In this document: in pieces, positions 195 through 63,427 of the stretch | How positions within the stretch are numbered: position 1 is the first letter of the stretch | How the letters are laid out: every line of letters starts with the position of its first letter | NCBI GenBank assembly: GCA_030646915.1 | Contig: JAUSKT010000012.1 | Location: 4,663 to 68,662 of the forward strand | From: a bacterium | GTDB taxonomy: Bacteria; Patescibacteriota; Minisyncoccia; UBA6257; 02-FULL-45-10c | Reading direction: 5' to 3' | DNA length: 64,000 bases | Position numbers and translations under genes: made by a program | Notes under the pieces: generated by a model | Databases searched by the model: none | Seen by the model: the letters and a program-made list of their open reading frames with translations, nothing else | What the model was told of the DNA's origin: nothing

Positions 195-1946
195 TTATTT
201 CAAAAATTTCAACATTTTTTCTAACGGCCAAGCATTTATAATATCCTCTTTTTCCGCCCAGCCCCGCCTTGCTTGCGCAATGCCATATTCTAGCCATTCA
301 AAATGAGATGTGTGATGCGCATCAGAATCAATAGCCATTTTTACTCCAGCTTCCGCGCATTTCCGGATATATTCATCTTTAAGATCAGAACGGTCTGAAG
401 CGTTTATTTCTAAAATCGTATTAGTCTTTTTAGCATGTTTTATTAATTCTTCAACATCCACATCATAAGGTTCACGCTTATTAAGAATCCTCCCAGTTGG
501 GTGGAAAATAATATCCACATGCGGATTAGACATAGCGCGCTTAATTCTTTCTGTCTGATCTTTTCTGGATAAATTAAAAAGTGAATGCACTGAGGCGCCA
601 ACCACTTCGCATTTTGCCAAAATTTCACCCGGCAAATCCATAGAACCATCTTTTAAAATATCACACTCAGTACCCTTAAGAACTTTAAACTTTAAACCTT
701 TAACTTTTAACTTATGATTTACTTCATCAATCTCTTTCCACTGCTTCTGAATTCTTATTTCATCTAGGCCGTGAGTCATTGCTAATCGCTTGGTATGGTC
801 TGTAATAGCAATATATTCTAATCCCATTTTCATCGCTACTTCTGCCATTTCTTGTATAGAATTTGCGCCATCAGTCCAATTAGTCTGAATCTGCAAATCA
901 CCCCTTAAATCTCCGTAACCGATAAGTTTTGGAAGTTTATTTTTTTGAGCAGCTTCAATTTCGCCCCGCATTTCTCTTAATTCCGGCTCAATATAATCCA
1001 TTCCTAAAGCTTTATATAATTCTTCTTCTGTTCTGCCGGCAATCTGTCTCCCTACGGGAGATCTCCCGTAGGGAGACTTTTTCATATCAAATAAACCGTA
1101 TTCGCTGAGTTTATAGCCCTTATTAAGGGCGATCCGCCTAAGTTCAATATTATGGTCTTTAGAACCGGTAAAATAATTAAGCGCCGCGCCATAAGATTCT
1201 GCCGAAACCACTCTTAAATCCACATCCAATCCATTTTTTAATTTAATTGCAGATTTAGTTTCACCATGAGCAAAAACTTGGGCTACTTCCGGCATAGAAA
1301 TAAAATAATCCATTATAGATTTTGGCTTTTTTGAAATAACTAAAATATCCGCATCGCCAATCGTATCTTTTCTTCGGCGGATTGATCCGGCAACCGCCAC
1401 CCGCTCCACTTCTTTTAATTTTTCCAGTCGAGATTCAATTTCCCTGACCTGCGGAATTGCTAATCCCAAAACAAACCGGCCGCCGATTTTTTTTAAAAAC
1501 TCTAAACCTTTTAAAATATTTTCTTCGCTCTTTATTCCAAATCCCTTCAAATTTCTTATTCTTCCACTTGCAAGTGCTTTTTCTAAATCTCTAAGGCCGA
1601 TAATTCCTAGTTCTTCATATAATTTTTTTAAAGTTTTAGACCCCAGCCCATTAATGCCTTCAAAATCTTTTAACCTAATGGGAATTTTCTTTTTAAAATC
1701 TTCATAATATTTTAAATGTCCAGTTTTAATCAGCTCCTCAATTTTTTCCGCAATAGAAATTCCAACTCCCGAAATCGCCCCTAAAGCTTTTAATCCGCCC
1801 TTTTTATAAATTTCTGAAGTTTTTTCTTCTAAATTTTCCAAAGCTTCCGCCACTTTTTCATAAGCCCGAGCTTTAAAAAACTCATTATCCATTTCAAGAT
1901 AAATCCCAATTTCTTTTAAAATTTTAACGATTTCCTGATTGTCCAT
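195..1946 (-). CDS. polX: Family X DNA polymerase with C-terminal PHP domain (PolX)
   Basis: 583-aa ORF with HhH motifs, a pol-beta-type nucleotidyltransferase core (GSIRRRKDTIGDADILV) and a C-terminal PHP domain (ITDHT..., DSDAHH). Contains a 32-nt palindrome at 1046-1077 and heptad repeats at 681-715. Confidence 0.9.
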   Translation of the reverse strand: MDNQEIVKILKEIGIYLEMDNEFFKARAYEKVAEALENLEEKTSEIYKKGGLKALGAISGVGISIAEKIEELIKTGHLKYYEDFKKKIPIRLKDFEGINGLGSKTLKKLYEELGIIGLRDLEKALASGRIRNLKGFGIKSEENILKGLEFLKKIGGRFVLGLAIPQVREIESRLEKLKEVERVAVAGSIRRRKDTIGDADILVISKKPKSIMDYFISMPEVAQVFAHGETKSAIKLKNGLDVDLRVVSAESYGAALNYFTGSKDHNIELRRIALNKGYKLSEYGLFDMKKSPYGRSPVGRQIAGRTEEELYKALGMDYIEPELREMRGEIEAAQKNKLPKLIGYGDLRGDLQIQTNWTDGANSIQEMAEVAMKMGLEYIAITDHTKRLAMTHGLDEIRIQKQWKEIDEVNHKLKVKGLKFKVLKGTECDILKDGSMDLPGEILAKCEVVGASVHSLFNLSRKDQTERIKRAMSNPHVDIIFHPTGRILNKREPYDVDVEELIKHAKKTNTILEINASDRSDLKDEYIRKCAEAGVKMAIDSDAHHTSHFEWLEYGIAQARRGWAEKEDIINAWPLEKMLKFLK

Positions 1947-17343: not shown

Positions 17344-18327
17344 TTATAGCTTCTGGCACTTTGGGCAAAAATGCGCAGAACGCCCACCCAACTTTACCCG
17401 AACGATAGCCGTTTTGCATCTTCGGCAAGGCTCATCCTCGCGCTGATAAACTAGACGATAATCCGCATATCCCCCCTCTTTTCCCGAAGTATCCCGATAA
17501 TCGCTATAAGAAGTGCCGCGCAATTTCAAGGCCTTTTCCAAAACTTTTCGTATTGCCTTATACAAACTTCCTAATTCCTGATTCCCCAACTTATTCGCCG
17601 GCTTGAATGGATGGATTTTCGCAGCCCATAAAATATCGTCAGAATAAATATTTCCGATTCCCGCAATAACTTCCGGATCCATTAAAACTTGCTTGATTTT
17701 GCGACGCTCGGACTTTATTAATTTTACAAACTCCGCGAATTTGAAACTTGGGTCTAATGGTTCCGGCCCCAAATTTTTTATCTCCGGCAAATTTTCAATC
17801 TGTTCTTTGGTGCCTAAAAGGGCTTTGGCAAATTTACGAAGATCAGAAAGCGCCAACATTGCACCATCATCCACCCCGTTAGAAGCCGCCCTCGCTTTTA
17901 GCGAGTGGCTACGGCCACCTTGGGGCGACCTGCTTCTAACGGGGTCAAGATAAAAAATTAAATGAATATATTGATTATAAGGATCCTCAACTACTTCTTT
18001 CGGCTCAAGCGGAATAGTTTTTTTGCCCACGACTTTCCACTTGCCAATTAGCAGATGCCCGGTCATTTTCAAATGAATCAGCAATAAAAAATCACCGCTT
18101 AAATAAATTAAAATATTTTTTGCCCGGCGGACTACTTTTAAAATTTTCTTTCCTTTAATTACTTTTTCAAAAATCGCCACGTGCTTATGGGCTATTTTAT
18201 TTTTCTGCTGGTCAAGCGGGTCTTTGAGCATTTTCGGCCAATCAAACCAAACGCCGACTATTCGTCGGCCAACTACTTTCTTATTCAGATCATTAACTAT
18301 GGTTTGTACTTCTGGAAGCTCTGGCAT
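17344..18327 (-). CDS. mutM: Formamidopyrimidine-DNA glycosylase (Fpg/MutM) with an in-frame repeat insertion
   Basis: N-terminal MPELPEVQT, H2TH region and C-terminal Zn finger CRRCKTAI...CPKCQ. A 23-codon GC-rich insert lies at 17875-17943. Confidence 0.9.
   Translation of the reverse strand: MPELPEVQTIVNDLNKKVVGRRIVGVWFDWPKMLKDPLDQQKNKIAHKHVAIFEKVIKGKKILKVVRRAKNILIYLSGDFLLLIHLKMTGHLLIGKWKVVGKKTIPLEPKEVVEDPYNQYIHLIFYLDPVRSRSPQGGRSHSLKARAASNGVDDGAMLALSDLRKFAKALLGTKEQIENLPEIKNLGPEPLDPSFKFAEFVKLIKSERRKIKQVLMDPEVIAGIGNIYSDDILWAAKIHPFKPANKLGNQELGSLYKAIRKVLEKALKLRGTSYSDYRDTSGKEGGYADYRLVYQREDEPCRRCKTAIVRVKLGGRSAHFCPKCQKL
17874..17944 (-). mobile_element. TIR element, short GC-rich form (71 nt), in frame inside mutM
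   Basis: ccccgttagaagc...gcttctaacgggg, translated as PVRSRSPQGGRSHSLKARAASNG. Flanks are TTGA/TGGA (gene sense). Confidence 0.75.
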
Positions 18328-21047: not shown

Positions 21048-21938
21048 TTACAATCTTTCAACTAATGATTTAAAACCCAATTCTTCAAAATATTTTTTAA
21101 GTCCATCTTTGTCTGGCGTCTCTTGTTTTAAATCGGCCAAAGTTAATTCTAATGGCACGTCCCGTTTTATCATTGCCAGTTTTTTTGATAAAAAAGCGCT
21201 TTCGCGGTTTTTTTCCAGTTTTTCTTGCAAAACTTTTTTTGGAATCAGACCGACTTCTTCATAAATTTTTTCCACTGATCCGTATTCCTTGATTAAATCT
21301 GTCGCGCCTTTCGGGCCAATGCCATTAACGCCAGGAATATTATCCGATACATCGCCGACTAAAGCTTTATAATCCACTAATTGTTCCGGTGAAAATCCGT
21401 ATTCCTGCAAAAATAAAACTTTATCATAAGAAATGGTCTTACTGACGCCGGTTCTTAAAAGCTCGACAATAACTTTATTATCATCAACCAATTGCAAATT
21501 ATCTTTGTCGCCAGAGAAAATGATAACTTTGAGTTCAAAGTTATCACCCTGAGCCCGCCGAAGGGTTCCCGAATCTTTAAACATTTCGGCTAAAGTTCCT
21601 ACAATATCATCTGCTTCAAAACCGGCTTTTTCCACCACTTTAATTCCAAATTTCTCAAAAGTATTGTGCGCTTCATGAAGCTGAGAAATCAATTCATTAG
21701 CAGTCGGCGGACGATGGGCTTTATATTCTTTATACATTTCCTTGCGAAAAGTCGGTTCTGGCCGGTCAAAGGCAGCGGCCGTATAATCCGGCTGATGTTC
21801 GCGCAAAATCTTTAAAAGAATGCTGGAAAGCCCATAAACTGCATTAATCGGTTCGCCCCTGGGAGTCGTCAGCGGCGGAAGCGCATGAAAAGAGCGGTGA
21901 ATCAAGGAGTTTGCGTCAATTAAAAGAAGTTTTTTCAT
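21048..21938 (-). CDS. 5'-3' exonuclease (FEN-like N-terminal domain of Pol I) as a separate ORF
   Basis: 296 aa with LLLIDANSLIHRSFHA, GFEADDIVGT and GDKDNLQL motifs plus an HhH region. Confidence 0.9.
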   Translation of the reverse strand: MKKLLLIDANSLIHRSFHALPPLTTPRGEPINAVYGLSSILLKILREHQPDYTAAAFDRPEPTFRKEMYKEYKAHRPPTANELISQLHEAHNTFEKFGIKVVEKAGFEADDIVGTLAEMFKDSGTLRRAQGDNFELKVIIFSGDKDNLQLVDDNKVIVELLRTGVSKTISYDKVLFLQEYGFSPEQLVDYKALVGDVSDNIPGVNGIGPKGATDLIKEYGSVEKIYEEVGLIPKKVLQEKLEKNRESAFLSKKLAMIKRDVPLELTLADLKQETPDKDGLKKYFEELGFKSLVERL

Positions 21939-22043
21939 CCCGTTTAGAAAATTAAAATAAGTGTCTTGCCGACTAAATACTTCCGATAGTGCTCTATAAA
22001 ATTTTTATTGCGATTAAACATGGTTATTAATTTTCTAACGGGA
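21938..22043 (-). mobile_element. TIR element, long subfamily A (106 nt), on the 5'-3' exonuclease start codon
   Basis: TIRs are intact and the TGAA duplication is at 21934-21937 and 22044-22047 (gene sense). A 34-codon internal frame starts at ATG 22046-22048, which overlaps the tsaE stop TGA. Confidence 0.85.
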
Positions 22044-24189: not shown

Positions 24190-24297
24190 CCCGTTTAGAA
24201 AAATAAATAATAATATCTTGTAACTAAAAAGCTTCCTATAATGCAATTATAATATTTTGACTTATTTATTGATACGGCTGTTATTTTTCTAACGGGA
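24189..24297 (-). mobile_element. TIR element, long subfamily B (109 nt), on the ruvB start codon
   Basis: Ends tcccgttagaaaaataa...ttatttttctaaacggga, with the TGGA duplication at 24185-24188 and 24298-24301 (gene sense). A 35-codon internal frame ends at a TAA 5 nt before the ruvB ATG. Confidence 0.85.
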
Positions 24298-35709: not shown

Positions 35710-36777
35710 TTATTCTAAACTAAGGCTATAAAGCTTATTATCGTATCTGTTTTTAAAGAGCAGTTTTCCGCCAGCGAATTCTAGATGTTCAGCGTCAATT
35801 ATGATATCGGAATTTTCTAATAATAATTTTGAAGCCGCAGTGGCTAGGTTTATTTCATACAAATTATCGTCAAAATATACAGATTTTTTAAAATAATCAT
35901 CTGGTAAAAGCACCCCCTCTTTTATAAGTTTTGGAATGGCGCAATAAATTTTTTCCTTTTCCACCAAGCATTTGCTTGGAAGGGTAATAAAAGAAAGGTT
36001 GGTCAGATCATCCCCGGCTTTATTGATAATGCCAGTAACCGGAGAACGATTTTCATTGTGGTTTTTAATGCCGAATTCTCCATTTGGATACCACTTTATC
36101 CACAAACCGGATTGATTCTTTGTAACCGGAACCAGGCTTTTGGTAGACAGATTTAATGACCAGAGCGAAGAAGGTGTATCTGCGCTGGGGGTTTCATATA
36201 GAAGCAAGGTGTCGCCGGAAACCCAATTTAAAACCAAGTCTTTTTGGGTTAATTTTAAAACATCTCTGGTTTTTTGAGTGTCCGGATTAAAAATTTTTAA
36301 TCCCTTATCATCAAGATAAATTATTTCTTGGTTAGTCGGAGACCAATCCGCCGCTGAAATATTAGGCGGCAAAGCCTGCCAATTGTTAGTGGCGGTATTG
36401 AAAATACTGAAGCTGATTGCATCCGGATAATTTAATTTTACCAAAGCTAAAACCCCGCTATTGGAAGCTTTTAAATTATTAAATTTATTAATAGTTTGAG
36501 AATTTACCAATTCTTCTCCGCCAGAGCCAATCTTAATTACTTGCCCTAAGGGATTGAGGTAATAAATAAAATTATTTACCCGATTTACCCAATAATCAGA
36601 GATTTCATTATTAGATAAAAGTTTTAATTTTTGCGGAAGCTCGGTTGGCTGGGTATTTTCGGTATCTGGAGAAATCAGTTTTTTAAATAAATTTTGCCAA
36701 AGAAAATATCCTCCAACGAGTATTCCAAGCGTTATTAAAATTCCTAAACCAGTTTTTAAATATTTTTTCCAGTTCAT
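35710..36777 (-). CDS. Membrane-anchored beta-propeller-like protein (TolB/PD40-like), last gene of the T4SS-like cluster
   Basis: 355 aa with an N-terminal TM helix and a repetitive beta-strand-rich body. Confidence 0.45.
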   Translation of the reverse strand: MNWKKYLKTGLGILITLGILVGGYFLWQNLFKKLISPDTENTQPTELPQKLKLLSNNEISDYWVNRVNNFIYYLNPLGQVIKIGSGGEELVNSQTINKFNNLKASNSGVLALVKLNYPDAISFSIFNTATNNWQALPPNISAADWSPTNQEIIYLDDKGLKIFNPDTQKTRDVLKLTQKDLVLNWVSGDTLLLYETPSADTPSSLWSLNLSTKSLVPVTKNQSGLWIKWYPNGEFGIKNHNENRSPVTGIINKAGDDLTNLSFITLPSKCLVEKEKIYCAIPKLIKEGVLLPDDYFKKSVYFDDNLYEINLATAASKLLLENSDIIIDAEHLEFAGGKLLFKNRYDNKLYSLSLE

Positions 36778-36882
36778 CCCGTTTAGAAAATTAAAATAAA
36801 CGTCTTGTCGACTGAAGACTTCCGATACTGCTCTATAAAATTATTGCTATGTATAAACATATTTATTAATTTTCTAACGGGA
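36777..36882 (-). mobile_element. TIR element, long subfamily A (106 nt), on the start codon of 35710-36777
   Basis: TIRs are intact. Flanks are TGCA/TGAA (3 of 4 match). The internal frame encodes MHPVRKLINMFIHSNNFIEQYRKSSVDKTFILIF. Confidence 0.85.
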
Positions 36883-39148: not shown

Positions 39149-40864
39149 TTATCCCCTTTGTTCCAATATTTGTTCGGGCTTGGTGGTGACAATTTTATCT
39201 TCAAGATAAGAGGCTATAACTTGGATTGCCACATGATTTAATCCGGCAAAAAACAGCCCCTCCCCAATTTTTGCTTCCAAGAGAAGGCTTTTTTCTCCCT
39301 CGGTTAAATTAAAAGTTTTAGCAACCATATCAATCATTGCCGGGGCCTGTTTTAAAAGAAGCTGTAAAGATGAGTTGGTAATAATCGGCCGGCCATATGG
39401 AGATTTTAAGAAATCTTCCACATCTTGAGTAATAGTAGTTACGCCCATAAAATATTTCCGGCATCGTTTTACCAATCCAAATAAGAAAGTGGCGCCATCT
39501 TCATGTTTCATAATTACCCAAGCTTCATCAATAACCAGCACTCGTTTTTTAAGATTGGCGCGGATTAAGTTCCAGATGAAATTCAAAACAATATACATTG
39601 CAATCGGCCGGAGTTCGTCTTCCAGGTCTCGGATAGAAAAAACAATCAAACGATTTTTAATATCCACATTAGTCGGTTGATTGGTAAATCCTCCATAGCT
39701 GCCTTGGGTATATTTATATAATCTTTCCGCAAGTCCCCGCCCGCCCTCCATATTTTCCATAACTTTTTGGAGGTCTTCTAAAAGCGGAGGCGCGGCATTA
39801 GAAAAATCTTTTCCGGGAATAATATCGTGGGAAGCGTAAGTTTCTGAAAGCGCCCTGTCTAAAATCGCATCTTCTTCGGGAGTAATTTTTCCAAGCATTA
39901 TTTTTAAAAGTCCGGCTAAGTTTACGATATGGGAACGAAGAACATCACTAGGATCTTCGTCTGTAGGAATTATCGGAATATCAAAAGGATTGACGTGGTG
40001 ATCAGATGCTAAAGAAATTTTAAAATAGCTTCCGCCGACGGCGGCAGTAAGATTTTCATATTCATTTTCCGGATCAATAACAATGACATCTATTCCAAGC
40101 ATCAAAAGCCTTAAAATTTCCAGTTTAGTGGCATAAGATTTTCCACTTCCAGATTTGGCGAAAATCACCATATTGGCATTTTCTAAAGAAAATCGGTCGA
40201 AAATTACAAGCGTATTATTAAGCCGGTTAATGCCATACATAAGGCCGTCATTTGAAGTAAGTTCAGAGGAGGTAAAGGGAAAGACAGAAGAAAGCGGGCC
40301 GGAATTCAATGGTGAATGGATTAATAATTTATCTTGGCCGATAGGCAGAGTTGATCCAAAGCCTTCTAATTGTTGAAAAAGCGCCGGTTTGACATAGATC
40401 AGGCGGCTTTCGAGTAAAGAGGTTATTTTATTTTCTAATTTATGGAGAGCTTCTATAGTATCGGCATAAACAGTGATATAGACGCCGACATTAAATAAAT
40501 GTTCTCTTGATTGCTGTAAAGAATCCCGCAAAGATTCAATGTCTTGAAAGGCGGTTTCTAGCATAGGATCGCGCACCATTCCCTTCTCCTGCCTTTCAAT
40601 TACTTGAGATTCTACTTGAGCAGCCTTTTTACGGAGTCTTTTAAGGGCCATTGGCGTTTCTACTGGATGAATAAAGATGGAAATATCCAGAAGTTCCGGC
40701 ATATCAATAATTCCGGAAAACCAGCCAGTGGCCAAATATCTGGGATAAGTAAAAATGAAAATAGTTTTTACAAACTTATCTCCAAGTTTTAAATAATTGG
40801 AATTCACTTCCAGCGCCGGTGGCGCAATTGCATTGATTAAATTTTTATTTTGTTCTTCAGCCAT
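39149..40864 (-). CDS. virB4: VirB4/TrbE/PrgJ-type conjugation/T4SS ATPase
   Basis: 571 aa with Walker A AKSGSGKSY, Walker B VLVIDEAW and a C-terminal TTITQDVEDF region. Confidence 0.8.
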   Translation of the reverse strand: MAEEQNKNLINAIAPPALEVNSNYLKLGDKFVKTIFIFTYPRYLATGWFSGIIDMPELLDISIFIHPVETPMALKRLRKKAAQVESQVIERQEKGMVRDPMLETAFQDIESLRDSLQQSREHLFNVGVYITVYADTIEALHKLENKITSLLESRLIYVKPALFQQLEGFGSTLPIGQDKLLIHSPLNSGPLSSVFPFTSSELTSNDGLMYGINRLNNTLVIFDRFSLENANMVIFAKSGSGKSYATKLEILRLLMLGIDVIVIDPENEYENLTAAVGGSYFKISLASDHHVNPFDIPIIPTDEDPSDVLRSHIVNLAGLLKIMLGKITPEEDAILDRALSETYASHDIIPGKDFSNAAPPLLEDLQKVMENMEGGRGLAERLYKYTQGSYGGFTNQPTNVDIKNRLIVFSIRDLEDELRPIAMYIVLNFIWNLIRANLKKRVLVIDEAWVIMKHEDGATFLFGLVKRCRKYFMGVTTITQDVEDFLKSPYGRPIITNSSLQLLLKQAPAMIDMVAKTFNLTEGEKSLLLEAKIGEGLFFAGLNHVAIQVIASYLEDKIVTTKPEQILEQRG

Positions 40865-40968
40865 CCCGTTAGAAAATTAAATTAAACATCTTGCCGACTA
40901 AAGACTTCCGATATTGCTCTATAAAATTTTGGTTTAGTTTAAACATATTTATTAATTTTCTAACGGGA
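40864..40968 (-). mobile_element. TIR element, long subfamily A (105 nt), on the virB4 start codon; supplies the stop codon of the upstream gene
   Basis: TIRs are intact and no flanking duplication is seen. The TAG of ORF 40960-41631 (40960-40962) lies inside the element terminus cccgTTAGaaaa. Confidence 0.85.
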
Positions 40969-42161: not shown

Positions 42162-42268
42162 CCCGTTAGAAAAATAAATTATAACGCCTTACGACTAACA
42201 GGTTTTCTATAATGCAATTATAAAATTTTGAATTATCTTTACACATGATTGTTATTTTTCTAACGGGA
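42161..42268 (-). mobile_element. TIR element, long subfamily B (108 nt), on the start codon of 41646-42161
   Basis: TGAA duplication on both sides. The internal frame encodes MNPVRKITIMCKDNSKFYNCIIENLLVVRRYNLFF and ends at a TAA 4 nt before the ATG. Confidence 0.85.
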
Positions 42269-42272
42269 TTCA

Positions 42273-42301
42273 TCCCTTCGTTAGTATTGTCTCTAACGGG
42301 A
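42273..42301 (-). mobile_element. 29-nt stub of a TIR element in tandem with the previous copy
   Basis: Gene sense reads tcccgttagagacaatactaacgaaggga between two further ATGAAT repeats. It is 9 codons long and in frame with the downstream element frame. Confidence 0.6.
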
Positions 42302-42305
42302 TTCA

Positions 42306-43220
42306 TTATTTATTTTTTAAATCAATAATGTTATCGCCTGATTTTTCGAATTTCCGCAAATCAATCCTGTTTTGATCCGCGGGATTTTTTGGCGTTCCAA
42401 TATTAGTAATTGGGGTTCTTGGGCCGCTGTAGTGAACTACTCTAGCAGCCGGATTATTTTCGGGTGTTTCCAGTCTTACTGATACTGCCTTAGAAGCAGA
42501 TTTTTTTTCTTCAGAAGCCGGCCGCGAATAGTTTTGAATTTTAATAGAAAGATCCGGCCTAGCATTAAAAGTTGGCTTAGGGGAAGAAACTTCTGTTTCT
42601 TGATGTAAGATAAATGGAGAAGATGGCGCTTCCAAAGATTGGAGATCAATTTTAGCTTCCTCTTTTTTAGGAGCAAGAGATGGCTCTAAAAAATCTTTAA
42701 ATGATTTTTGTACGCTAGCTTGTCCTAGTGATGAGGCTGGTCCCGTTAGAGACTCCGCCCGCGCTTGCGCGCCCGAAGGGCCTATGGGGCGGGCTGTCTC
42801 TAACGGGATGGCTGCTGATTGTGTCGCTGGTTCAGTTGCAGGTTTTTGCGCGGCAGAAGCTGATCCTGGCTTGCCAAAATAAATTAATTTTACATCCACG
42901 CCAACATCCCGCCTTAATTCATTTTCAATTGGTTTTAAAATTTTATTTTCAATATCTTCGGCGATGGATTTTGCGGTTGTAAAACTAACCATAAGTTCGT
43001 GACTTAGGGCATTTATAAACTCCGTAGGTTCAATATCTTGGGTTACAAGCCTAAATATTAGCTTCGGTATAATTATTCCCCGTTCATTCTTTATTCCCAG
43101 TCTTTGGTTTATTTCAGTAACTAGATAAGTAGTTTGTAGGGAAGAAAGCCGCTCTTTAACGTTTGGGGGCAATGACTCAAATGCAGCCCCCAAATTTTTA
43201 AATTCTTTAGTGTCGTCCAT
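42306..43220 (-). CDS. Hypothetical protein with Ala/Ser/Pro-rich linker (T4SS-like cluster), carrying an in-frame repeat insertion
   Basis: 304-aa ORF. A 22-codon GC-rich insert lies at 42742-42807. Confidence 0.5.
   Translation of the reverse strand: MDDTKEFKNLGAAFESLPPNVKERLSSLQTTYLVTEINQRLGIKNERGIIIPKLIFRLVTQDIEPTEFINALSHELMVSFTTAKSIAEDIENKILKPIENELRRDVGVDVKLIYFGKPGSASAAQKPATEPATQSAAIPLETARPIGPSGAQARAESLTGPASSLGQASVQKSFKDFLEPSLAPKKEEAKIDLQSLEAPSSPFILHQETEVSSPKPTFNARPDLSIKIQNYSRPASEEKKSASKAVSVRLETPENNPAARVVHYSGPRTPITNIGTPKNPADQNRIDLRKFEKSGDNIIDLKNK
42741..42808 (-). mobile_element. TIR element, short GC-rich form (68 nt), in frame inside 42306-43220
   Basis: tcccgttagagac...gtctctaacggga with a TGG duplication. 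It is read in a different frame from the other intragenic copies (IPLETARPIGPSGAQARAESLTG). Confidence 0.75.
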
Positions 43221-47700: not shown

Positions 47701-48543
47701 TTATCGGAAAATATTAGCCAGAGACTTTATTTGTTCCAGTGATAAATTTTGCGGACGATCTAGGGGGTTGATATTCAGAAATTGCAGGCTTTTTTTAATA
47801 TCTTCTTCTTTGGTTTTAAGACCAGTCCTAAGGTTATTAAAGATTGTTTTTCTCGGTTGTTTAAAAAGAATGTGGATTAATTTGTAGTAATTTTGCTGTA
47901 GTTGTCTGTGGTTATTTGTAGTTGTTTGTGGTTTTGTCGTTAGTTTAATTACTGCAGAATCTACTTCCGGCGGCGGATTAAAATCCGCCGGTTTTAAGCT
48001 AAAAAGTATTTTAGGTTCTGCCCAGAATTGGACAGCAGCTGCCAGCAGATTCATCCCGTTAGAGGCAGAGGCGCGCTGCGGGCCCTCGCGGCCTCTAACG
48101 GGATTCATTCTCCGGGGTTGGGAAACAATTCTTTCCGCAACTTCTTTTTGAATCATTAAAACAGAAATATTAGGCTTATTATTTAATTCACTTAAAACCC
48201 TTAGCAGTTTACCGGTAATATAGTAGGGAATGTTTCCTACAAGTTTAAAACTTGAAGAATCAAGTTTAAAGCAAATTTTTGACAATTCTTTTAGGGCATC
48301 TCCGTGGATAACTTCTATTTTTTCTTCATGTTTAATAAGTTTTACCGCAAGATCTCGGTCTTTTTCAATTGCAATTAATTTGCAGCCAACCTTTTTACAT
48401 TCTTCTAAAAGCGGAAAAGTCAGCGCTCCATCGCCTGGACCAATTTCAATAATTGTTTCTCCGGATTTTAAATCTAAATCAGCAATTATTTTTTTAATTG
48501 CAGATTTATTTGTAAGAAAATGCTGGCCTAATTGTTTATTCAT
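47701..48543 (-). CDS. rsmA: 16S rRNA (adenine1518/1519-N6)-dimethyltransferase RsmA/KsgA with an in-frame repeat insertion
   Basis: 280 aa with LGQHFL, the SAM motif EIGPGDGALT and NIPYYIT. An 18-codon insertion lies at 48049-48102. Confidence 0.9.
   Translation of the reverse strand: MNKQLGQHFLTNKSAIKKIIADLDLKSGETIIEIGPGDGALTFPLLEECKKVGCKLIAIEKDRDLAVKLIKHEEKIEVIHGDALKELSKICFKLDSSSFKLVGNIPYYITGKLLRVLSELNNKPNISVLMIQKEVAERIVSQPRRMNPVRGREGPQRASASNGMNLLAAAVQFWAEPKILFSLKPADFNPPPEVDSAVIKLTTKPQTTTNNHRQLQQNYYKLIHILFKQPRKTIFNNLRTGLKTKEEDIKKSLQFLNINPLDRPQNLSLEQIKSLANIFR
48054..48103 (-). mobile_element. TIR element, short GC-rich form (50 nt), in frame inside rsmA
   Basis: Flanked by the direct repeat ATGAAT (gene sense; 48049-48054 and 48103-48108). 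Translated as PVRGREGPQRASASNG. Confidence 0.85.
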
Positions 48544-48665
48544 CCCGTTAGAGACAGGTCATCTTTAGATGACCGTAACTCGGCCGCCTAAACGACTCCT
48601 GACGATTAATTATTGATTCTGATTTTATATATATATTAAACATAGTTTAGTTGTCTCTAACGGGA
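48543..48665 (-). mobile_element. TIR element, long subfamily C (123 nt), on the rsmA start codon
   Basis: Ends tcccgttagagac...gtctctaacggga with TGAA duplications. The internal frame has an early TAA at codon 8, then an in-frame ATG leading to the terminal TAA. Confidence 0.85.
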
Positions 48666-55758: not shown

Positions 55759-55881
55759 TCCCGTTAGAGACAACCAAACTATGTTTTATATATATCCAAA
55801 ATTTGAATCAATAATTAATAATCAGAAGTCAGTTAGGTGGCCGAGTTACGGTCATCTAAAGATGACCTGTCTCTAACGGGA
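55759..55881 (+). mobile_element. TIR element, long subfamily C (123 nt), on the comM start codon
   Basis: TGAA duplications at 55755-55758 and 55882-55885. The upstream ATG (55754-55756) overlaps the dksA-like stop TAA. The internal frame is 40 codons (MNPVRDNQTMFYIYPKFESIINNQKSVRWPSYGHLKMTCL). Confidence 0.88.
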
Positions 55882-57416
55882 TGAATCTTTCTAAAGTTTT
55901 TTCCGCCTCAATTGATGGCATTGAGGCTAAATTAATTGAAATTGAGACCGACGTTCACGTCGGTCTTCATAGTTTTAATATCGTCGGGCTGGCGGATAAA
56001 TCTTTATCAGAAGCAAAGGAGCGGGTCAGTTCAGCTTTGAAAAATAGCGGAGTAAAGCCGCCGACTAAAGAAAATCGGAAAATCGTGGTAAATCTTGCTC
56101 CGGCAGATTTAAAGAAAACCGGATCGCATTATGATTTGGGAATTGCAGTCGGCTATCTTTTGGCGACAAAACAAATAAAAGAATTTAATGCAAAAGATAA
56201 AATTTTTGTTGGAGAATTAGCGCTGGATGGCTCGCTTCGCCCGATTGGCGGAGTTTTGAATATTTCCCGCATGGCAGAGAAAGAAAAATTTAAAGAAGTT
56301 TTTGTGCCAAAAGAAAATGGAGTGGAAGCGGCGATTGTTGAGGGTGTAAAAGTTTTTCCTGTGAATAATTTATTGGAATTAATAAATCATTTAGAAAATC
56401 GGACTTTGATAAAACAGCAGCCAAAAACAGAAATTGAGCCGTCAATATCTTCCGAGCATAATTTAGTGGATATTTCTGATATCAAGGGCCAGGAAAATGC
56501 TAAGCGCGCTTTAATGATTGCTGCAGCCGGCGGGCATAATCTTTTAATGCAAGGAACGCCAGGCGCCGGTAAAACCATGCTTGCCCAAGCCTTGAATTCA
56601 ATTCTGCCCCCTCCGGATCTGGATGAAATTATGGAAATTACTCAAATCTACAGCGCGGCCGGACTTTTAAAAAATAATTCTTTTATTAATTGGCGCCCAT
56701 TTCGGGCTCCGCATCAGACCGCGTCTCCTGTCGCGGTTTTCGGCGGCGGGCAGAATCCGCGCCCCGGAGAAATCAGCTTGGCGCACCGGGGAATTTTATT
56801 TCTGGATGAACTTCCGGAATTCCGGAGAGATTTATTGGAATCCCTCCGCCAGCCGCTAGAAAGCGGGAAAGCAGTAATTTCCAGAATAAAAAATAATTTA
56901 GTTTTTCCAGCTAAGTTTACATTAGTAGCGGCAATGAATCCCTGCCCTTGCGGATATTATGGAGACGAAGAAAAAGACTGCAAATGTTCTGCGTTTGAAG
57001 TTTTCCGTTATCAAAAGAAAGTTTCCGGCCCGCTTTTAGACAGGATTGATTTGCAGATTAATGTGCCTCGGGTAAAAATAGAACATTTGCAGAATAAAAC
57101 TAGGGATGAAAAATCTGCCAATGAAATGCGGAAAAAAGTGGCAAATACCCGGAATATCCAAAAGGCCAGGTTGAAGAAATTTAAGATTTTAACTAACTCA
57201 GAAATGAGTTCCAAGATGTGTGATGAAATGATTGAACTTAATAAGGAAGCGGATAAATTCTTAAAAGATATTTTTGAAAAATCTTTAATTTCTGCCCGCG
57301 GTTATTACCGGATTTTAAAAACCGCCCAGACAATCGCTGATTTGGAAGAAGTTAAAAATGTGGATGTTGGGCATTTAGCTGAAGCATTTCAATATCGTTT
57401 AAGGGAGAATAGCTAA
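55881..57416 (+). CDS. comM: YifB/ComM Mg-chelatase-like AAA+ ATPase
   Basis: 511 aa with a Lon-protease-like N-domain, Walker A GTPGAGKT and Walker B LFLDELPEF. Confidence 0.9.
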   Translation: MNLSKVFSASIDGIEAKLIEIETDVHVGLHSFNIVGLADKSLSEAKERVSSALKNSGVKPPTKENRKIVVNLAPADLKKTGSHYDLGIAVGYLLATKQIKEFNAKDKIFVGELALDGSLRPIGGVLNISRMAEKEKFKEVFVPKENGVEAAIVEGVKVFPVNNLLELINHLENRTLIKQQPKTEIEPSISSEHNLVDISDIKGQENAKRALMIAAAGGHNLLMQGTPGAGKTMLAQALNSILPPPDLDEIMEITQIYSAAGLLKNNSFINWRPFRAPHQTASPVAVFGGGQNPRPGEISLAHRGILFLDELPEFRRDLLESLRQPLESGKAVISRIKNNLVFPAKFTLVAAMNPCPCGYYGDEEKDCKCSAFEVFRYQKKVSGPLLDRIDLQINVPRVKIEHLQNKTRDEKSANEMRKKVANTRNIQKARLKKFKILTNSEMSSKMCDEMIELNKEADKFLKDIFEKSLISARGYYRILKTAQTIADLEEVKNVDVGHLAEAFQYRLRENS

Positions 57417-57467: not shown

Positions 57468-58544
57468 TTATGGGACGAGGCTGCTGAGAACTTTTTTAAG
57501 TCCGTTATAGGAAGTGCTTAGTACTAATTTGTCTCCAGACCAAACTATATTGAGTCCGGCGCCTTTTTTGGAATAGGTTAAATAACGAGTTGAAAGCCCG
57601 TTTAATTGTCCAGTTTTAAATCCGCTTGCACTTGGCGTTCCGGGAGAAGTTAGAAAAAGATTCTGGAGATTTGTAGAGGTTTCTAAAATAGTTGAGAAAG
57701 TCTGGCCGTCTGCAAGATTTGCATTAGGAGCAAGTTTTAAAATATAGGCCGGCCAAACACCATCTTGGTCGTAAAAAAGTCCAGTAGTAAAGTCTTCGCC
57801 AAAAAGGCTTTTTATATTATCCATGGATAATTCTGGAAAAACAGCCGATAAAAATTTGGAAGCATCTAGCGGGCCGTTGGCATCGCTTAAAGAAACCTCT
57901 ATCAAATTTCCAGAAGGATTGGATTTTTGGGCTTCTTGATTTAAAGCGTTAGTTAAAGATGTTAAGTCGGAACTCGCTAAATTTACTTCAACTGCGCTAT
58001 CTGAAGATTGCAAAAGAGATTGGTGAATGCGCCCCTCATTTTCCGTTGTTGCGACTGGAACCTCTGGGGTTTCTGTAGTTGTTGGCGGAGTTACGGCTGG
58101 GGGTGGGGGCGGAGTTTGTGTTGGAAAAAGCATTGGAAAGAGTACAAAGTAGCTTAGCAGTCCAACTCCAACCGCAACAACAACTACCCCTCCCCAAAGT
58201 AAAAGCTTTTTTCCTCTTCCACTGGCAGCCGGCTCTTCTTCAATAACTGGCGCCATTTCTTTTTCCATTTCTGCCTTTAGATTTTCTCTTGGAGAGCCAA
58301 AATCAGCAGGAGTAATTTTAGGCGGCGGCGGAGGCGGGGTTGTTGGCGCGGACCATTCTTTTTTTAGTTCCGGAGGAGTAAATGGTTTTGGCGCCGGGCC
58401 AGATCCGCCGGTTTCTTTTAGGGATTCCAAATCAGACTTCATAGTTCGAAGCGTAATTTCTGGAGGAGGTGGAGGCAGAGGCATAGTCGGCCGTCCGCCA
58501 GGTGGCGGAGGAAAACTAGATGGCTGCGGATTTAAATCATCCAT
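57468..58544 (-). CDS. Hypothetical proline-rich single-pass membrane protein
   Basis: 358 aa with PPPPP tracts, one TM helix and an extracytoplasmic C-terminal domain. Confidence 0.55.
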   Translation of the reverse strand: MDDLNPQPSSFPPPPGGRPTMPLPPPPPEITLRTMKSDLESLKETGGSGPAPKPFTPPELKKEWSAPTTPPPPPPKITPADFGSPRENLKAEMEKEMAPVIEEEPAASGRGKKLLLWGGVVVVAVGVGLLSYFVLFPMLFPTQTPPPPPAVTPPTTTETPEVPVATTENEGRIHQSLLQSSDSAVEVNLASSDLTSLTNALNQEAQKSNPSGNLIEVSLSDANGPLDASKFLSAVFPELSMDNIKSLFGEDFTTGLFYDQDGVWPAYILKLAPNANLADGQTFSTILETSTNLQNLFLTSPGTPSASGFKTGQLNGLSTRYLTYSKKGAGLNIVWSGDKLVLSTSYNGLKKVLSSLVP

Positions 58545-58649
58545 CCCGTTTAGAAAATTAAATTAAACGTCTTGCCGACTGAAGACTTCCGATAATGCTC
58601 TTTAAGACAATTTAGTACTATAATCATATTTGTTAATTTTCTAACGGGA
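58544..58649 (-). mobile_element. TIR element, long subfamily A (106 nt), on the start codon of 57468-58544
   Basis: TGGA duplications on both sides (ATGGAT/ATGGAT). The internal frame encodes MDPVRKLTNMIIVLNCLKEHYRKSSVGKTFNLIF. Confidence 0.88.
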
Positions 58650-60939: not shown

Positions 60940-61437
60940 TTTCTTTAATAATATTTTTGGCAATTTTTCCAAATCAATGAATTCATCCGCCGCTTCTTTT
61001 ATTTTTCCGGATCCGCTTCTTCCGAAAGCCGCTACCTCCACCGTTCTGCCCATTCCCCATTTTAGATATTCCACTAACGGGACAAAATCTCCGTCGCCAG
61101 TTACTAAAATTACTACATCTAAAAGATTAGACATTCGGATTGCGTCTACTGCCATGCCGACATCCCAATCAGCTTTTTTCATTCCGCCTGGATAAATTTG
61201 AAGATCCTTACTGCGAAGTTCTAATCCGGCTTTTTCCAGGGCGTCAAAAAATTCCGCTTCTCCTTTGGCGGTATCGCTTTTTACTACATAGGCCATGGCG
61301 ATTACAAGCTGCCGGCCGCTCACAAGCTCTTTCATCAATTCTTTATAATTGACCCGAGCGTGATATAAATTTTTAGAAGAGTGGTAAAGATTTTGAATAT
61401 CAACAAATATTCCCACTCTCTGATCTTTTCGTTTCAT
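60937..61437 (-). CDS. NYN/LabA-like domain protein
   Basis: VGIFVDIQNLYHS...VILVTGDGDFVPLVEYL. The start is set at MKRKDQ (61437) rather than the track position 61479. Confidence 0.7.
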   Translation of the reverse strand: MKRKDQRVGIFVDIQNLYHSSKNLYHARVNYKELMKELVSGRQLVIAMAYVVKSDTAKGEAEFFDALEKAGLELRSKDLQIYPGGMKKADWDVGMAVDAIRMSNLLDVVILVTGDGDFVPLVEYLKWGMGRTVEVAAFGRSGSGKIKEAADEFIDLEKLPKILLKK

Positions 61438-61560
61438 TACTGATTGCGCTTCGCAAAGCCAAGATACAAATGCACACAAATGATACCAATTTTATCCCAG
61501 TATCATTTGTATGAATTCGTACTTTAGATGGGGAAGCGCTTAATTAATTTAGTTTATAAT

Positions 61561-61827
61561 TTATTTTTTCAATCCCAATTTTTTAATAGTTGAGCTGTAA
61601 GATTTAGGATTTTTCTTTGAAAGATAATCCAATAATCTTTTTCTTTTGCCGACCATTTTTAATAACCCTCTTCGGGAATGGTTGTCTTTCCGGTGTTTTT
61701 TAAGGTGGCCGGTTAATTCCTCGATTTGCCTGGTTAAAAGCGCAACTTGAACAGCCGGAGATCCGGTATCTTTATCATGTTCCTGATGTTCTTTTAAAAC
61801 GTTAATTTTTTGCCTGACACTTAACAT
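61561..61827 (-). CDS. rpsO: 30S ribosomal protein S15
   Basis: 88 aa with [37 protein letters not shown]. Confidence 0.93.
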
Positions 61828-61895
61828 TGTTGTCTATTATAGACTATTTGTTTAAAAAAATCAACCCCCCCATTTTATTAATTAAAAAACCGGCA

Positions 61896-62162
61896 TTATT
61901 CTGCCGGTTTGAATTTATCTGCAAGCCATTCAAGATCAGATCCGTCTGCTCCTAAAACTTCTTCAAGATATACCAAGCCGCATTTCCATTCTTCTAGAAC
62001 TTTTCCTTTCAGCCACCAATCGGATTTGAGATGCCGTTTTTGATATTCTTCTAAAGAAACATGTTCTTTTATGGTATAGATTTTATTAGTGCTGAACATT
62101 GCCTTATCCATAAAATCTAGTTTGCCTTCAATGCAAACTACTCGATCGCCTGGTTTGAACAT
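61896..62162 (-). CDS. Hypothetical small protein
   Basis: 88-aa ORF. A terminator hairpin aaaccggc/gccggttt overlaps its stop. Confidence 0.45.
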   Translation of the reverse strand: MFKPGDRVVCIEGKLDFMDKAMFSTNKIYTIKEHVSLEEYQKRHLKSDWWLKGKVLEEWKCGLVYLEEVLGADGSDLEWLADKFKPAE

Positions 62163-62263
62163 TTTAGCTTTTTAATTGAATAAGTTCTAAAAAGATATTA
62201 GCAGAAGCTTCCAGAAAAAACAACACTTACCTGTCGCAAAATGTTAAATGGTATAATTAGTTT

Positions 62264-63214
62264 ATGGCAGCCATTGAAAAATCCTTAAAAGACTACTTAG
62301 ATTATCTGGAAATTGAAAAAAACCGTTCGCCGAAGACGCGAGAAAATTATGAACGATATTTAAAAGCCTTTATTGATTTTTCTAGAATTAAAAAACCGGA
62401 AGATATTACAATGGAGACGGTGAAAGAATTCCGGATATGGTTAGCGCGCAGTCCCGTTAGAGGCCGCGAGGGCTCGAAGCGCGCCTCTGCCTCTAACGGG
62501 ATAAAAAAAGTTACCCAGACTTATTACGCCATTGCCATCCGGAATTTTTTAAAATACTTGATTAAAAACGATTTTGAAGTTTTGTCTCCGGATAAAATTG
62601 AATTGCCGAAAATTCCCCGCCGGCAGATAGATATTATTGAATACGCGGATTTGGAAAGGTTTTTAAGCGCGCCGGCGCAAAATACTTTGCGCGGACTTAG
62701 AGACAGAGCTATCCTGGAAATGTTTTTTTCCACCGGACTCCGGATTTCCGAACTTTGCAATTTAGATAGGTATATTAATTTGGATAGAGGAGAAATCACG
62801 GTAAGAGGCAAGGGCGAAAAATTGCGGGTGGTTTTTCTTTCAGATCGGGCAAGAGCGGCTATAAAAAATTATCTGGATAAAAGAAGTGATACCACAGAAC
62901 ATTTATTTATCAGCCTTTCCAAGCAAACTTCTCCATTGAAAGAGCCGAAAGTTATTGGAAAAATCACTTCGCGAGCAGTCCAGCGGTTGGTAGAATTTTA
63001 CCGGCGGAAAGCTGGCATCGCCAAAAAAATAACTCCGCATCAGATCCGCCATCAGTTCGCGACTGATTTATTAATAAATGGCGCAGACCTCCGCTCGGTG
63101 CAGGAGCTTCTTGGCCATAGCAATATTTCCACCACTCAAATTTATACCCACATTACTAATAAAGAACTTCGGGAAATTCATAAATCTTTCCACGCAGCCA
63201 GGCGGAGAAAATAA
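62264..63214 (+). CDS. XerC/XerD-type tyrosine recombinase with an in-frame repeat insertion
   Basis: 316 aa with an N-terminal SAM-like domain (LEIEKNRSPKTRENYERYL) and catalytic R...HQIRH...LLGH...Y residues. A 16-codon insert lies at 62453-62500. Confidence 0.88.
   Translation: MAAIEKSLKDYLDYLEIEKNRSPKTRENYERYLKAFIDFSRIKKPEDITMETVKEFRIWLARSPVRGREGSKRASASNGIKKVTQTYYAIAIRNFLKYLIKNDFEVLSPDKIELPKIPRRQIDIIEYADLERFLSAPAQNTLRGLRDRAILEMFFSTGLRISELCNLDRYINLDRGEITVRGKGEKLRVVFLSDRARAAIKNYLDKRSDTTEHLFISLSKQTSPLKEPKVIGKITSRAVQRLVEFYRRKAGIAKKITPHQIRHQFATDLLINGADLRSVQELLGHSNISTTQIYTHITNKELREIHKSFHAARRRK
62452..62501 (+). mobile_element. TIR element, short GC-rich form (50 nt), in frame inside the Xer recombinase gene
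   Basis: 46 of 48 core positions are identical to the rsmA copy, in the same orientation and frame (PVRGREGSKRASASNG). No flanking duplication is recognisable. Confidence 0.8.
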
Positions 63215-63216
63215 TT

Positions 63217-63237
63217 TGGTGCCCTCGGGAGGATTTG
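63217..63237 (-). repeat. Duplicated 3' end of tRNA-Leu (with encoded CCA)
   Basis: The 19-nt segment gtgccctcgggaggatttg at 63219-63237 is identical to 63345-63363, the T-arm and acceptor 3' strand of tRNA-Leu. There is no matching 5' half, so it is not a gene. Confidence 0.7.
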
Positions 63238-63345
63238 CCTCTCCTTTCAGTCGAGACCTCATCACTTCGTGATTTCGGCCTTCGGTTCAATATCCTCAAA
63301 ACAAAAAATAATAAAAACCGAACAAACTTCAGTTTTTATTATTTG

Positions 63346-63427
63346 TGCCCTCGGGAGGATTTGAACCTCCAATCCTTGCGGAACATGGTCCTAAGCCATG
63401 CGCGTCTGCCAGTTTCGCCACGAGGGC
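63346..63427 (-). tRNA. tRNA-Leu (anticodon UAG)
   Basis: Minus-strand cloverleaf: acceptor GCCCTCG/CGAGGGC, anticodon stem CATGG/CCATG with loop CTTAGGA, a long variable arm, and T arm GGAGG-TTCAAAT-CCTCC. Confidence 0.88.

Follow-up and report, generated by a model that had tools for sequence, protein, structure and literature searches.

The subject of this analysis is a 48-nt hairpin element lying in frame within xer, a gene for a Xer-type tyrosine recombinase, in a 64,000-nt stretch (hereafter, the window) of contig JAUSKT010000012.1 from a bacterium of the Patescibacteriota. The composition of the window is approximately 38% G+C, and its bacterial genes include those for PNPase, S15, S20, and RuvB. 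An earlier note, made from the letters alone, had reported that nearly the same 48 nt recur in rsmA. The two features at the xer locus are as follows, with the element assigned to class C of a family whose classes are described below:

62264 to 63214, + strand: xer, Xer-type tyrosine recombinase of 316 aa, with Pfam PF00589, N-terminal SAM-like domains, and XerA/XerD matches in the PDB
62452 to 62501, + strand: class C element in xer, comprising the 48-nt core (62453-62500) and a terminal T/A pair

The core (62453-62500, + strand) has the sequence CCCGTTAGAGGCCGCGAGGGCTCGAAGCGCGCCTCTGCCTCTAACGGG. Its 13-nt terminal inverted repeats, TCCCGTTAGAGGC and GCCTCTAACGGGA, are complementary at 13 of 13 bases, and the copy folds, as RNA or DNA, into a hairpin with a 14-bp stem and a small inner stem (-34.8 kcal/mol, z = -5.9). 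The two differences in 48 positions claimed in the earlier note were borne out, since 46 of the 48 bases equal those of the rsmA copy at 48055-48102 (- strand), a match given by 0 of 100 shuffles. A window search for the 48-mer that tolerated three mismatches returned these two occurrences, and a repeat finder added a third, more diverged 48-nt copy at 15370-15417. Both the xer and the rsmA copies are in the sense orientation relative to the host gene, with CCC as a codon, which confirms in both open reading frames (ORFs) the shared orientation and frame that had been proposed. The xer insert is 48 nt (3 x 16) long and stop-free, has AGT and ATA as neighbouring codons, and reads ...WLARS-PVRGREGSKRASASNG-IKKVTQTYY, so that the 16 residues gained are the peptide reported before. 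Its flanks, GCAG and TAAA, show no direct repeat, also as reported, whereas the rsmA copy has ATGAAT on either side.

The possibility of an assembly artefact, raised in the earlier note, was addressed with the Logan assembly of run SRR13727527, in which locus L253 contains 2108 nt identical to window positions 61159-63266, insert included. Because this independent assembly is identical, the insert is not the product of one assembler.

The catalytic domain of Xer is intact, with every family-invariant residue kept in the alignment of homologues, and its matches include proteins annotated as Candidatus Harrisonbacteria and other Patescibacteria. The insert lies inside the Pfam N-terminal SAM-like domain (residues 8-101), in agreement with the core-binding location given earlier, and a HMMER alignment to E. 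coli XerD (1A0P) places it opposite a short segment between two helices of the N-terminal domain. The AlphaFold model, built from alignment A1, reached an overall predicted local distance difference test (pLDDT) score of 56 with a poor C-terminal domain, owing to the shallow alignment, and was used for the N-terminal domain only. In that domain, which is modelled with confidence, the helices comprise residues 3-18, 23-40, 50-62, and 82-101; the two beside the insert (50-62 and 82-101) are confident, and residues 66-78 form a coil with a pLDDT below 50. The alignment with orthologues and structures, which had been suggested as a check, places the insert in an interhelical loop, and on the model this would be the loop that joins helices three and four of the N-terminal core-binding domain. 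Most likely, xer has stayed intact, and its product tolerates the insert as a surface loop, 16 residues long and rich in Gly, Ser, and Arg, the presence of which would be neutral or nearly so.

Comparison of the best 120 clusters of Xer homologues showed a short loop (e.g., LAR-KEN-LKK) at this position in 102, and the closest relatives (P0002 and P0004-P0008; 84-87% identical) are without the insert residues. Relatives lacking the 16 residues, together with the loop position of the insert, support the earlier view that the repetition is at the DNA level and does not reflect protein homology, and the predominance of the short loop speaks against a conserved longer domain. PVR...SNG inserts were found at the same spot in 8 of the 120 best clusters, all 8 of which have FRIWLAR, and the interiors of inserts at this site are unrelated, ranging from 9 to 46 residues. 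Since the inserts that are present differ in sequence and length among orthologues, they do not behave as a conserved feature of the Xer domain. The homologues P0003, P0019, and P0047 have unrelated insertions of up to 48 residues after LFVSLSK, in the catalytic domain (A1 columns ~310-385).

The filled xer alleles share a common outline. The window (48-nt class C), L123 (69-nt class D type), and L127 (27-nt remnant) have the common junctions GCGCGCAGT/CCC and GGG/AT(A/G)AAAAA. In L125 and L126, xer carries other 69-nt interiors, with extra codons kept and an imperfect TTCA/TGAA pair, and in L124 it holds a tandem pair, the first element of which is that of L125 and the second of which resembles that of L123. 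Far from the insert, the window allele resembles the empty allele L121 (87-96% identity) more than the filled allele L123. Close to it, over approximately 50 nt on the upstream side and 25 nt on the downstream side, the relation is reversed, with 82-95% identity to L123 and only 33-67% to L121. These mosaic flanks look like a conversion tract, and the filled segment probably entered the window allele by homologous recombination.

In the history that we propose, an ancestral xer allele would have received an element at this site, the interior would later have been swapped by tandem insertion followed by deletion between identical repeats while the junctions stayed in place, and the filled segment would have passed between xer alleles by homologous recombination. 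The tandem step is proposed because L124 holds a tandem pair and because the junctions are common while the interiors differ; entry by recombination would account for the lack of a duplication, for flanks that are mosaic, and for how nearly the insert equals the rsmA copy of this genome. The imperfect TTCA/TGAA pair and the extra codons, seen in L124-L126, seem to be decayed flanks. The earlier note had left the choice between diverged flanks and another route of arrival, and both appear partly true, as decayed flanks are seen in relatives and the window allele is mosaic.

Mini-remnants of 27 nt and nested or tandem elements were also observed beside complete elements (window 42274-42300, L127 xer, L040, and L109), which suggests repeated insertion beside existing repeats, followed by deletional decay. 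Downstream of xer, 2 nt past its stop, the 3' end of the tRNA-Leu(tag) gene is repeated over 29 nt (63216-63244) with 86% identity, approximately 100 nt from the intact tRNA at 63345-63427 (- strand). Such a partial copy next to the recombinase gene could mark a former attachment site; the Logan contig ends just past it, at 63266.

The element family and its insertion signature

The window contains 15 elements with the paired ends CCCGTT(T)AGA / TCTAA(A)CGGG and one 27-nt remnant, together approximately 2% of its length. The ends of the family are (T)CCCGTTAGA...TCTAACGGG(A), with the outermost pair T:A or sometimes C:G, and the sizes of members, in the window and in a genome scan, range from 46 to 121 nt. 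Class A comprises ~104-nt, A+T-rich elements in 8 copies (starts 1947, 21939, 24190, 35026, 36778, 40865, 42162, and 58545), and class B comprises 121-nt elements in 2 copies (starts 48544 and 55760). The G+C-rich classes are class C, with 48 nt and 3 copies (starts 15370, 48055, and 62453), and class D, with 66-69 nt, a terminal stem, two inner hairpins, and 2 copies (starts 17875 and 42742). Rfam returned no family for any window element at gathering or permissive thresholds, giving two tRNAs and chance-level matches only.

In alignments of filled and empty sites, the family is shown to insert with a 4-bp target duplication. The syntenic loci L122 and L128 from close relatives have no family ends in 33 kb, compared with 15 elements in the window, and two window elements other than that in xer appear as clean insertions with duplication relative to these relatives. 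At the comM start, L128 reads ...aattATGAATtta and the window reads ...aataATGAAT(121 nt)ATGAATctt, the empty site with a single ATGAAT/ATG being present in both L128 and L122. At the gene downstream of that for PNPase, L128 reads ...aaattATGGACgat and the window reads ...aaaatATGGAT(104 nt)ATGGATgat.

The signature extends well beyond this genome. The scan of one genome per species with the pattern TCCCGTTAGA-N28-58-TCTAACGGGA gave at least 120 stretches, and the matches listed came mostly from many Patescibacteria lineages, with several Omnitrophota and Planctomycetota assemblies. Perfect 4-bp direct repeats were found in 94 of the 130 elements with enough flank (TGAA/TTCA, 44; TAAA/TTTA, 12; TTGA, 11; CTCA/TGAG, 10; TCCA/TGGA, 8); the TTGA duplications are often followed by C, as in TTGACA. 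At an ATG opening an ORF of at least 60 codons stood 70 of the 130. Viral contigs yielded only 4 stretches with the repeat pattern, so that phages are not an obvious reservoir.

We consider it highly probable that the 48-nt segment in xer is a non-autonomous, hairpin-forming mobile element of the MITE (miniature inverted-repeat transposable element) type, belonging to this repeat-defined family. The elements survive where they are harmless, namely exactly at start codons, or in frame inside genes in stop-free frames. The remaining elements of the window are the following:

48054 to 48103, - strand: class C in rsmA (ORF 47701..48543, - strand), 441 nt (147 codons) past the start, in frame
15369 to 15418, - strand: class C, intergenic, ~41 nt upstream of the rpsT (S20) start at 15459, abutting TTGACA, with the partial duplication TTG
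17875 to 17943, - strand: class D in fpg/mutM (ORF 17344..18327), 69 nt, G+C-rich, in frame (23 codons), -50.7 kcal/mol
42742 to 42807, - strand: class D in a 304-aa ORF of unknown function (42306..43220), 66 nt, 22 codons, in the second permitted frame
1947 to 2050, - strand: class A at the PolX ATG (gene 195..1946), 104 nt, A+T-rich, with ATGGAT duplicated
21939 to 22042, - strand: class A at the ATG of the 5'-3' exonuclease gene (21048..21938)
24190 to 24296, - strand: class A at the ruvB ATG (24189), 107 nt
35026 to 35129, + strand: class A at the ATG of the R3H/Jag-like gene (35130..35555)
36778 to 36881, - strand: class A at the ATG of ORF 35710..36777
40865 to 40967, - strand: class A at the ATG of the TraG-like ATPase gene (39149..40864), 103 nt, with the upstream ATG copy lost (AAGAAT)
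42162 to 42300, - strand: class A (42162-42267) at the ATG of the PrgI-like gene, preceded in tandem by the 27-nt remnant mini-hairpin (42274-42300) of a second element
58545 to 58648, - strand: class A at the ATG of ORF 57468..58544; empty site in the syntenic relative L128, ...aaaattATGGACgat
48544 to 48664, - strand: class B at the rsmA ATG, 121 nt, the first ~45 nt aligning with the 5' end of the full-length GIY-YIG element described below, including its ATGTTT(T)A start
55760 to 55880, + strand: class B at the comM/Mg-chelatase-like ATG (55881..57416), with ATGAAT on both sides

The rsmA class C copy bears a 4-bp duplication, TGAA, within its flanking ATGAAT copies, and the Pfam RrnaAD match is split at the insert. 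Other repeats in the window include a different palindromic family (CCTACGGGAGATCTCCCGTAGGGAGAC) at 1045-1072 and 7714-7741, with ends unrelated to those of the present family, and short tandem runs of TTTGAC/TTTAAC-type hexamers near gene boundaries at 670-719, 20706-20745, and 22242-22301.

The in-frame and start-codon niches

All four intragenic copies in the window (xer, rsmA, fpg, and the 304-aa ORF; 48, 48, 69, and 66 nt) have lengths divisible by three and contain no stop in the host frame, and 14 of the 16 in-ORF copies of the genome scan are multiples of three, unlike the start-codon copies. The repeat holds a stop in one frame only (CC CGT TAG), and the TGAA duplication adds TGA in a second frame; therefore, in-ORF copies nearly always read CCC GTT AGA ... 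TCT AAC GGG.

A census of class C with a degenerate pattern in a metagenome collection gave at least 120 stretches, mostly from groundwater and sediment. Among the matches listed, 104 unique contexts were distinguished, with perfect 4-bp duplications in 64 and a position inside an ORF in 54, of which 44 were in the sense PVRGREGSQR(A/P)SASNG frame. Counted manually with shadow ORFs discarded, the independent host families numbered ~31 in sense and ~6 in antisense, a bias suggestive of a further filter that favours hydrophilic peptides over Ala/Leu-rich ones. Element peptides were masked for the clustering of hosts, as shared peptides otherwise linked unrelated proteins. The hosts include P-type ATPase, RsuA-like pseudouridine synthase, UvrA, the PolI 5'-3' exonuclease domain, UvrB, and PBP2.

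The two stem pairs left free by the search pattern were 10/39 (G:C 90, A:T 19, G:T 1) and 11/38 (G:C 95, A:T 12, A:C 3). This nearly perfect covariation persists although the peptide changes, which makes the hairpin the conserved feature, as expected if the copies derive from masters needing the structure for mobility.

The second niche is the start codon itself. All 10 class A and B copies abut the downstream ATG as ...AACGGG/ATG, and a second copy of ATGRAT precedes 9 of the 10; the hosts are PolX, the 5'-3' exonuclease, RuvB, the R3H, TraG-like, and PrgI-like proteins, RsmA, the ComM-like protein, and two unknowns. As the elements end in ...GGGA, insertion into A/TGRA/ rebuilds ATG RA. on the right side. 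The fate of the frame starting at the duplicated upstream ATG depends on element length: a length of 0 mod 3 gives an in-frame fusion, 1 mod 3 gives a stop at the TAA inside TCTAACGGG, and 2 mod 3 with the TGAA duplication gives a TGA overlapping the host ATG.

Start-codon elements usually keep this upstream frame, with the stop 0-5 nt before the host ATG. In 8 of 8 class A copies, the frame is open through sequence of 25% G+C to a TAA 4-5 nt before the host ATG; for example, the upstream ORF in the element at 1947, MDPVRK...LIF*, ends 5 nt before the PolX ATG. These copies are 63-94% identical in pairwise comparisons, with lengths of 103, 104, 106, and 107 nt, and the chance of an open frame in a shuffled class A interior was 0.04-0.08 per copy, the other two frames being closed in all copies. 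Among 89 start-codon elements, the interior was open in the frame of the duplicated ATG in 55 and in the neighbouring frame in 26. Several elements from other phyla have GGAGG 9-14 nt before the host ATG. Read together, these patterns suggest that the elements have been shaped, or filtered, for translational coupling to the host gene.

Regarding transcription, -10-like hexamers (TAAAAT, TACAAT, and TTAAAT) were seen by eye ~7 nt before the (duplicated) ATG upstream of 2050, 24296, 35026, and 58648, and also before the empty-site ATG in the relative L128 (~6860-6930). On this basis, many genes here may have leaderless mRNAs. At two class A sites, what consensus scans for promoters and terminators returned did not exceed chance.

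A candidate autonomous element with a GIY-YIG gene

The search for an autonomous element covered 253 loci (1.75 Mb), first for repeat pairs 300-5000 nt apart with matching duplications and then for unpaired ends. The repeat pairs 300-5000 nt apart were only neighbouring small elements, and no transposase of a known class was found in the 1.75 Mb of loci. The search for unpaired ends returned elements of 277 and 278 nt with the same repeats: one at L156 5508-5784, where acaATGAA is followed by TCCCGTTAGAGAT...ATCTCTAACGGGA and then TGAAatc, and a second full-length element at L181 8674-8951. A further full-length element, at L254 10001-10285, lies in the dnaG-rpoD operon between the two genes, exactly on the rpoD start, with a TGAA duplication and a stop overlapping the ATG; 6.4 kb from it, at L254 3550-3597, a class C-like 48-mer stands in frame in a PCMT-type methyltransferase gene.

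The full-length elements encode an 84-85-aa protein, MFYVYVL...KRFLSLTG, matching Pfam GIY-YIG PF01541 (E = 3e-15 to 2e-19). The right repeat supplies its last codons (F L S L T G), and the reading frame is closed either by a stop that overlaps the host ATG (GGGATGA) or by the TAA within the repeat. A protein search gave 5794 homologue clusters; among the best 120, 84 end in LSLTG and 20 in LSRTG, and 33 begin with M(N/S)P(V/E)R, their reading frame starting at the duplicated host ATG and crossing the left repeat. Among solved structures, the nearest is UPF0213 BH0048 (1ZG2), which a 2006 survey of GIY-YIG proteins lists among bacterial Slx1-family structures, the prokaryotic members being the minimal stand-alone form. 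That survey cites earlier work predicting a role in DNA repair for the prokaryotic members and treats stand-alone Slx1-like proteins as vertically inherited repair enzymes; one paper describes horizontal transfer of GIY-YIG genes from Patescibacteria.

The small classes at start codons resemble these elements. Class B aligns with the full-length element over its first ~45 nt, including the ATGTTTTAT start, and its last ~15 nt; class A aligns to the ends of the full-length element and keeps ATGTTTA. Judging from these alignments, classes A and B are internally deleted derivatives of full-length GIY-YIG elements.

Other small GIY-YIG genes in the loci are bracketed by different inverted repeats, at L125 352-609 (- strand) and in L087, L187, L240, and L255-L257. 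The repeats of the L125 gene, CCCACACATAAC and GTTATGTGTGGG, abut the start codon of the PNPase gene, and a variant with the repeats CCCGAACGAGA and TCTCGTACGGG encodes a protein ending in LSRTG. The layout of gene plus repeat seems to be general, with lineage-specific repeats.

We tentatively propose, at somewhat less than an even chance, that the xer hairpin is a passenger of an apparently undescribed class of element, a unit of ~277 bp in which 13-nt terminal inverted repeats surround one 85-aa GIY-YIG gene, which inserts at host start codons and would be GIY-YIG-driven if the nuclease mobilises it. Such a unit would make 4-bp target duplications and land exactly on host start codons. Its gene would be translated from the host's own ATG, with many copies beginning MNPVRD, that is, the duplicated ATG plus the left repeat; its right repeat would encode ...LSLTG, and its stop, overlapping or directly preceding the regenerated host ATG, would hand ribosomes to the host gene. 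The units would have spawned the hairpin MITEs now found in frame in many proteins of the Candidate Phyla Radiation (CPR). That the 85-aa Slx1/UPF0213-type protein mobilises the family is the weakest step of this proposal, suggested by the shared ends. As a speculation, a plausible route would be the action of an Slx1-like structure-specific enzyme on an extruded hairpin, with host repair finishing the process.

Several points weigh against the preferred explanation, the GIY-YIG link included. The window contains no full-length GIY-YIG element, and the interior of class C has no similarity to the GIY-YIG gene, the link between them being the repeats (10-13 nt) only. GIY-YIG nucleases are known to cut, and we know of none with strand transfer or joining activity; those characterised leave short 3' overhangs, from which a 4-bp duplication is not the obvious outcome. 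The xer copy is without a target duplication of its own, so that its insertion event is unreadable from the sequence, and we infer translation of the insert by ribosome read-through from its frame, length, and freedom from stops. In view of the strong sense bias and the covarying stem, the hairpin or the peptide could have some function in addition to being tolerated. Finally, all the data are from metagenome assemblies.

Alternative explanations and known systems

Among the alternatives, the one that we take most seriously, though still improbable, is that the hairpin is kept for an RNA- or DNA-level role inside xer, such as processing by RNase III or another enzyme, ribosome pausing that tunes Xer synthesis, or a protein-binding site, the peptide being a by-product. 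The great stability of the hairpin, the strong orientation bias in ORFs, and the stem pairs that covary even when residues change, for example from Gly to Ser or Asp, would fit this role. However, covariation is equally expected from active masters needing the hairpin for mobility, a role specific to one gene is disfavoured by the occurrence of the same element between genes and within dozens of unrelated ones, the closest relatives manage without the insert, and no Rfam family matches. Rather less probable is co-option of the 16-residue loop under protein-level selection, a basic flexible loop altering the contacts of Xer with DNA or partners. An insert persists at this exact loop in several diverged lineages, the sense peptide is hydrophilic and rich in Arg and Lys, and sense copies in ORFs outnumber antisense copies ~5:1; yet the unrelated interiors, varying from 9 to 46 residues, conserve no particular peptide, 102 of the 120 homologue clusters have the short loop, and the model shows a low-confidence coil.

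It is very unlikely that the 48 nt remain untranslated, through ribosome bypass (as in T4 gene 60 and mitochondrial byps) or removal from the mRNA. A stable G+C-rich hairpin in an A+T-rich gene, and the identical short repeats flanking many members as possible take-off and landing sites, are reminiscent of such cases, but the flanking codons in xer, AGT and ATA, do not match, no stop follows the 5' junction, the triplet length and freedom from stops of the intragenic copies would be needless if they were skipped (4 of 4 in the window; 14 of 16 in the scan), and gene callers and Pfam read straight through. Least credible of all is an artefact of assembly or binning, such as a chimeric join through the repeat; the genome, which was assembled from a metagenome, does contain several copies of the repeat, but the SRR13727527 assembly is independent and identical over 2108 nt, the reading frame is preserved, and relatives from other samples hold inserts at the same site. 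Two further identities were rejected. Against an integron attC site stand the order of the GTTRRR/YYYAAC-like cores, which is the wrong one, the separate duplication carried by every hairpin, and the housekeeping nature of the adjacent genes; an intein or protein-level domain was dismissed because of the size of the insert and its absence from relatives.

With the mobile-element reading preferred, the family has practical consequences for annotation. Thousands of proteins from CPR metagenomes would carry element-derived, non-ancestral segments of the PVR...SNG type or MNPVR... N-termini, and start sites would be systematically mis-called where an element sits on the ATG. The combination of insertion at a start codon, regeneration of the ATG, and a coupled upstream reading frame is an unusual strategy, and the element may also be of use for tracing recombination and gene flow in groundwater bacteria that have not been cultivated. 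The 277-base element carrying only a small GIY-YIG gene is apparently undescribed; the open-access literature searched yielded no account of the family and nothing on the repeat sequence, on MITEs in Patescibacteria, or on GIY-YIG genes with inverted repeats or MITEs, although such an absence is weak evidence. If confirmed, the GIY-YIG mini-transposon would be a new kind of element. Mobility driven by the nuclease, if true, would add a nuclease family to the short list of DNA-transposon enzymes and would provide a minimal autonomous element of interest for the origins of transposons and as a compact tool for genome engineering; to our knowledge, the unit would then be far smaller than any autonomous DNA transposon.

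Compared with known MITEs (Correia/NEMIS, ERIC, RUP, and Nezha), the xer copy and its family are similarly small and without coding capacity, with terminal inverted repeats and dispersed copies polymorphic for presence and absence; target duplications are a feature of the family, though not of the xer copy. The transcripts of those MITEs fold into hairpins, and they presumably rely on an enzyme that a same-ended element provides in trans. However, known families derive from insertion sequences with DDE transposases and are mostly intergenic, whereas the only same-ended coding element here carries the GIY-YIG nuclease domain alone, the interiors are extremely diverse, and the ends are arranged so that insertion into ATGRA regenerates the start codon and couples an upstream frame.

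The short, dispersed, G+C-rich hairpins of REP/BIME-RAYT systems and the IS200/IS605 palindromes share with this family a structure conserved over the interior sequence, suggesting recognition of folded DNA. REP/BIME and IS200/IS605-derived elements are extragenic, have GTAG-type heads or subterminal hairpins, make no target duplication, and depend on HUH Y1 enzymes. The present family, in contrast, has intragenic copies, terminal repeats, and 4-bp duplications, and no HUH Y1 gene turned up in the searches of family loci for same-ended elements.

Homing genes of the GIY-YIG type (I-TevI and the Seg proteins) resemble the system in being selfish GIY-YIG genes and in the mosaic, co-conversion-like flanks of xer. 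Homing enzymes are two-domain proteins of ~250 aa, each with a single long target in a cognate allele, and are encoded by genes without terminal repeats or target duplications (PMC1564403, PMC3664794). The GIY-YIG domain is present in the full-length relatives and absent from the 48-nt copy; those relatives encode a bare 85-aa Slx1/UPF0213-type catalytic domain, with no C-terminal DNA-binding domain and no single target allele, and the family has repeats and duplications at hundreds of unrelated sites. The G+C-rich clusters or byps of yeast mitochondria and T4 gene 60 are likewise G+C-rich hairpins in genes of A+T-rich genomes that are not lethal. In bypass inserts, the length need not be divisible by three, stops occur, and the take-off codon must match the landing codon; the xer insert shows none of these features.

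The closest parallel is provided by the Rickettsia palindromic elements (RPEs; Ogata et al. 2000, summarised in PMC10969869). In both cases, short palindromes in a small A+T-rich genome have entered, in frame, many housekeeping genes that are unrelated to one another, and they permit translation, fall in surface loops, and are missing from the orthologues of relatives; in-frame, stop-free insertion was found here in xer, rsmA, fpg, and one unknown ORF, and in tens of host families in the metagenomes. The present elements differ in being 48-69 nt long, compared with roughly 100-150 nt for RPEs, and in having sharp 10-13-nt terminal repeats, 4-bp duplications, a dominant second niche at start codons, and an identifiable candidate for the autonomous element. 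Their hosts, Patescibacteria with Omnitrophota and Planctomycetota assemblies, are not Rickettsiales, and the separation from RPEs is made by hosts and description, not by alignment to RPE consensus sequences. By this analogy, the xer insert works like the RPE phenomenon in a different and much wider set of reduced genomes, and the family would represent a second, independent, and much broader case of Rickettsia-type selfish DNA inside the protein genes of such genomes.

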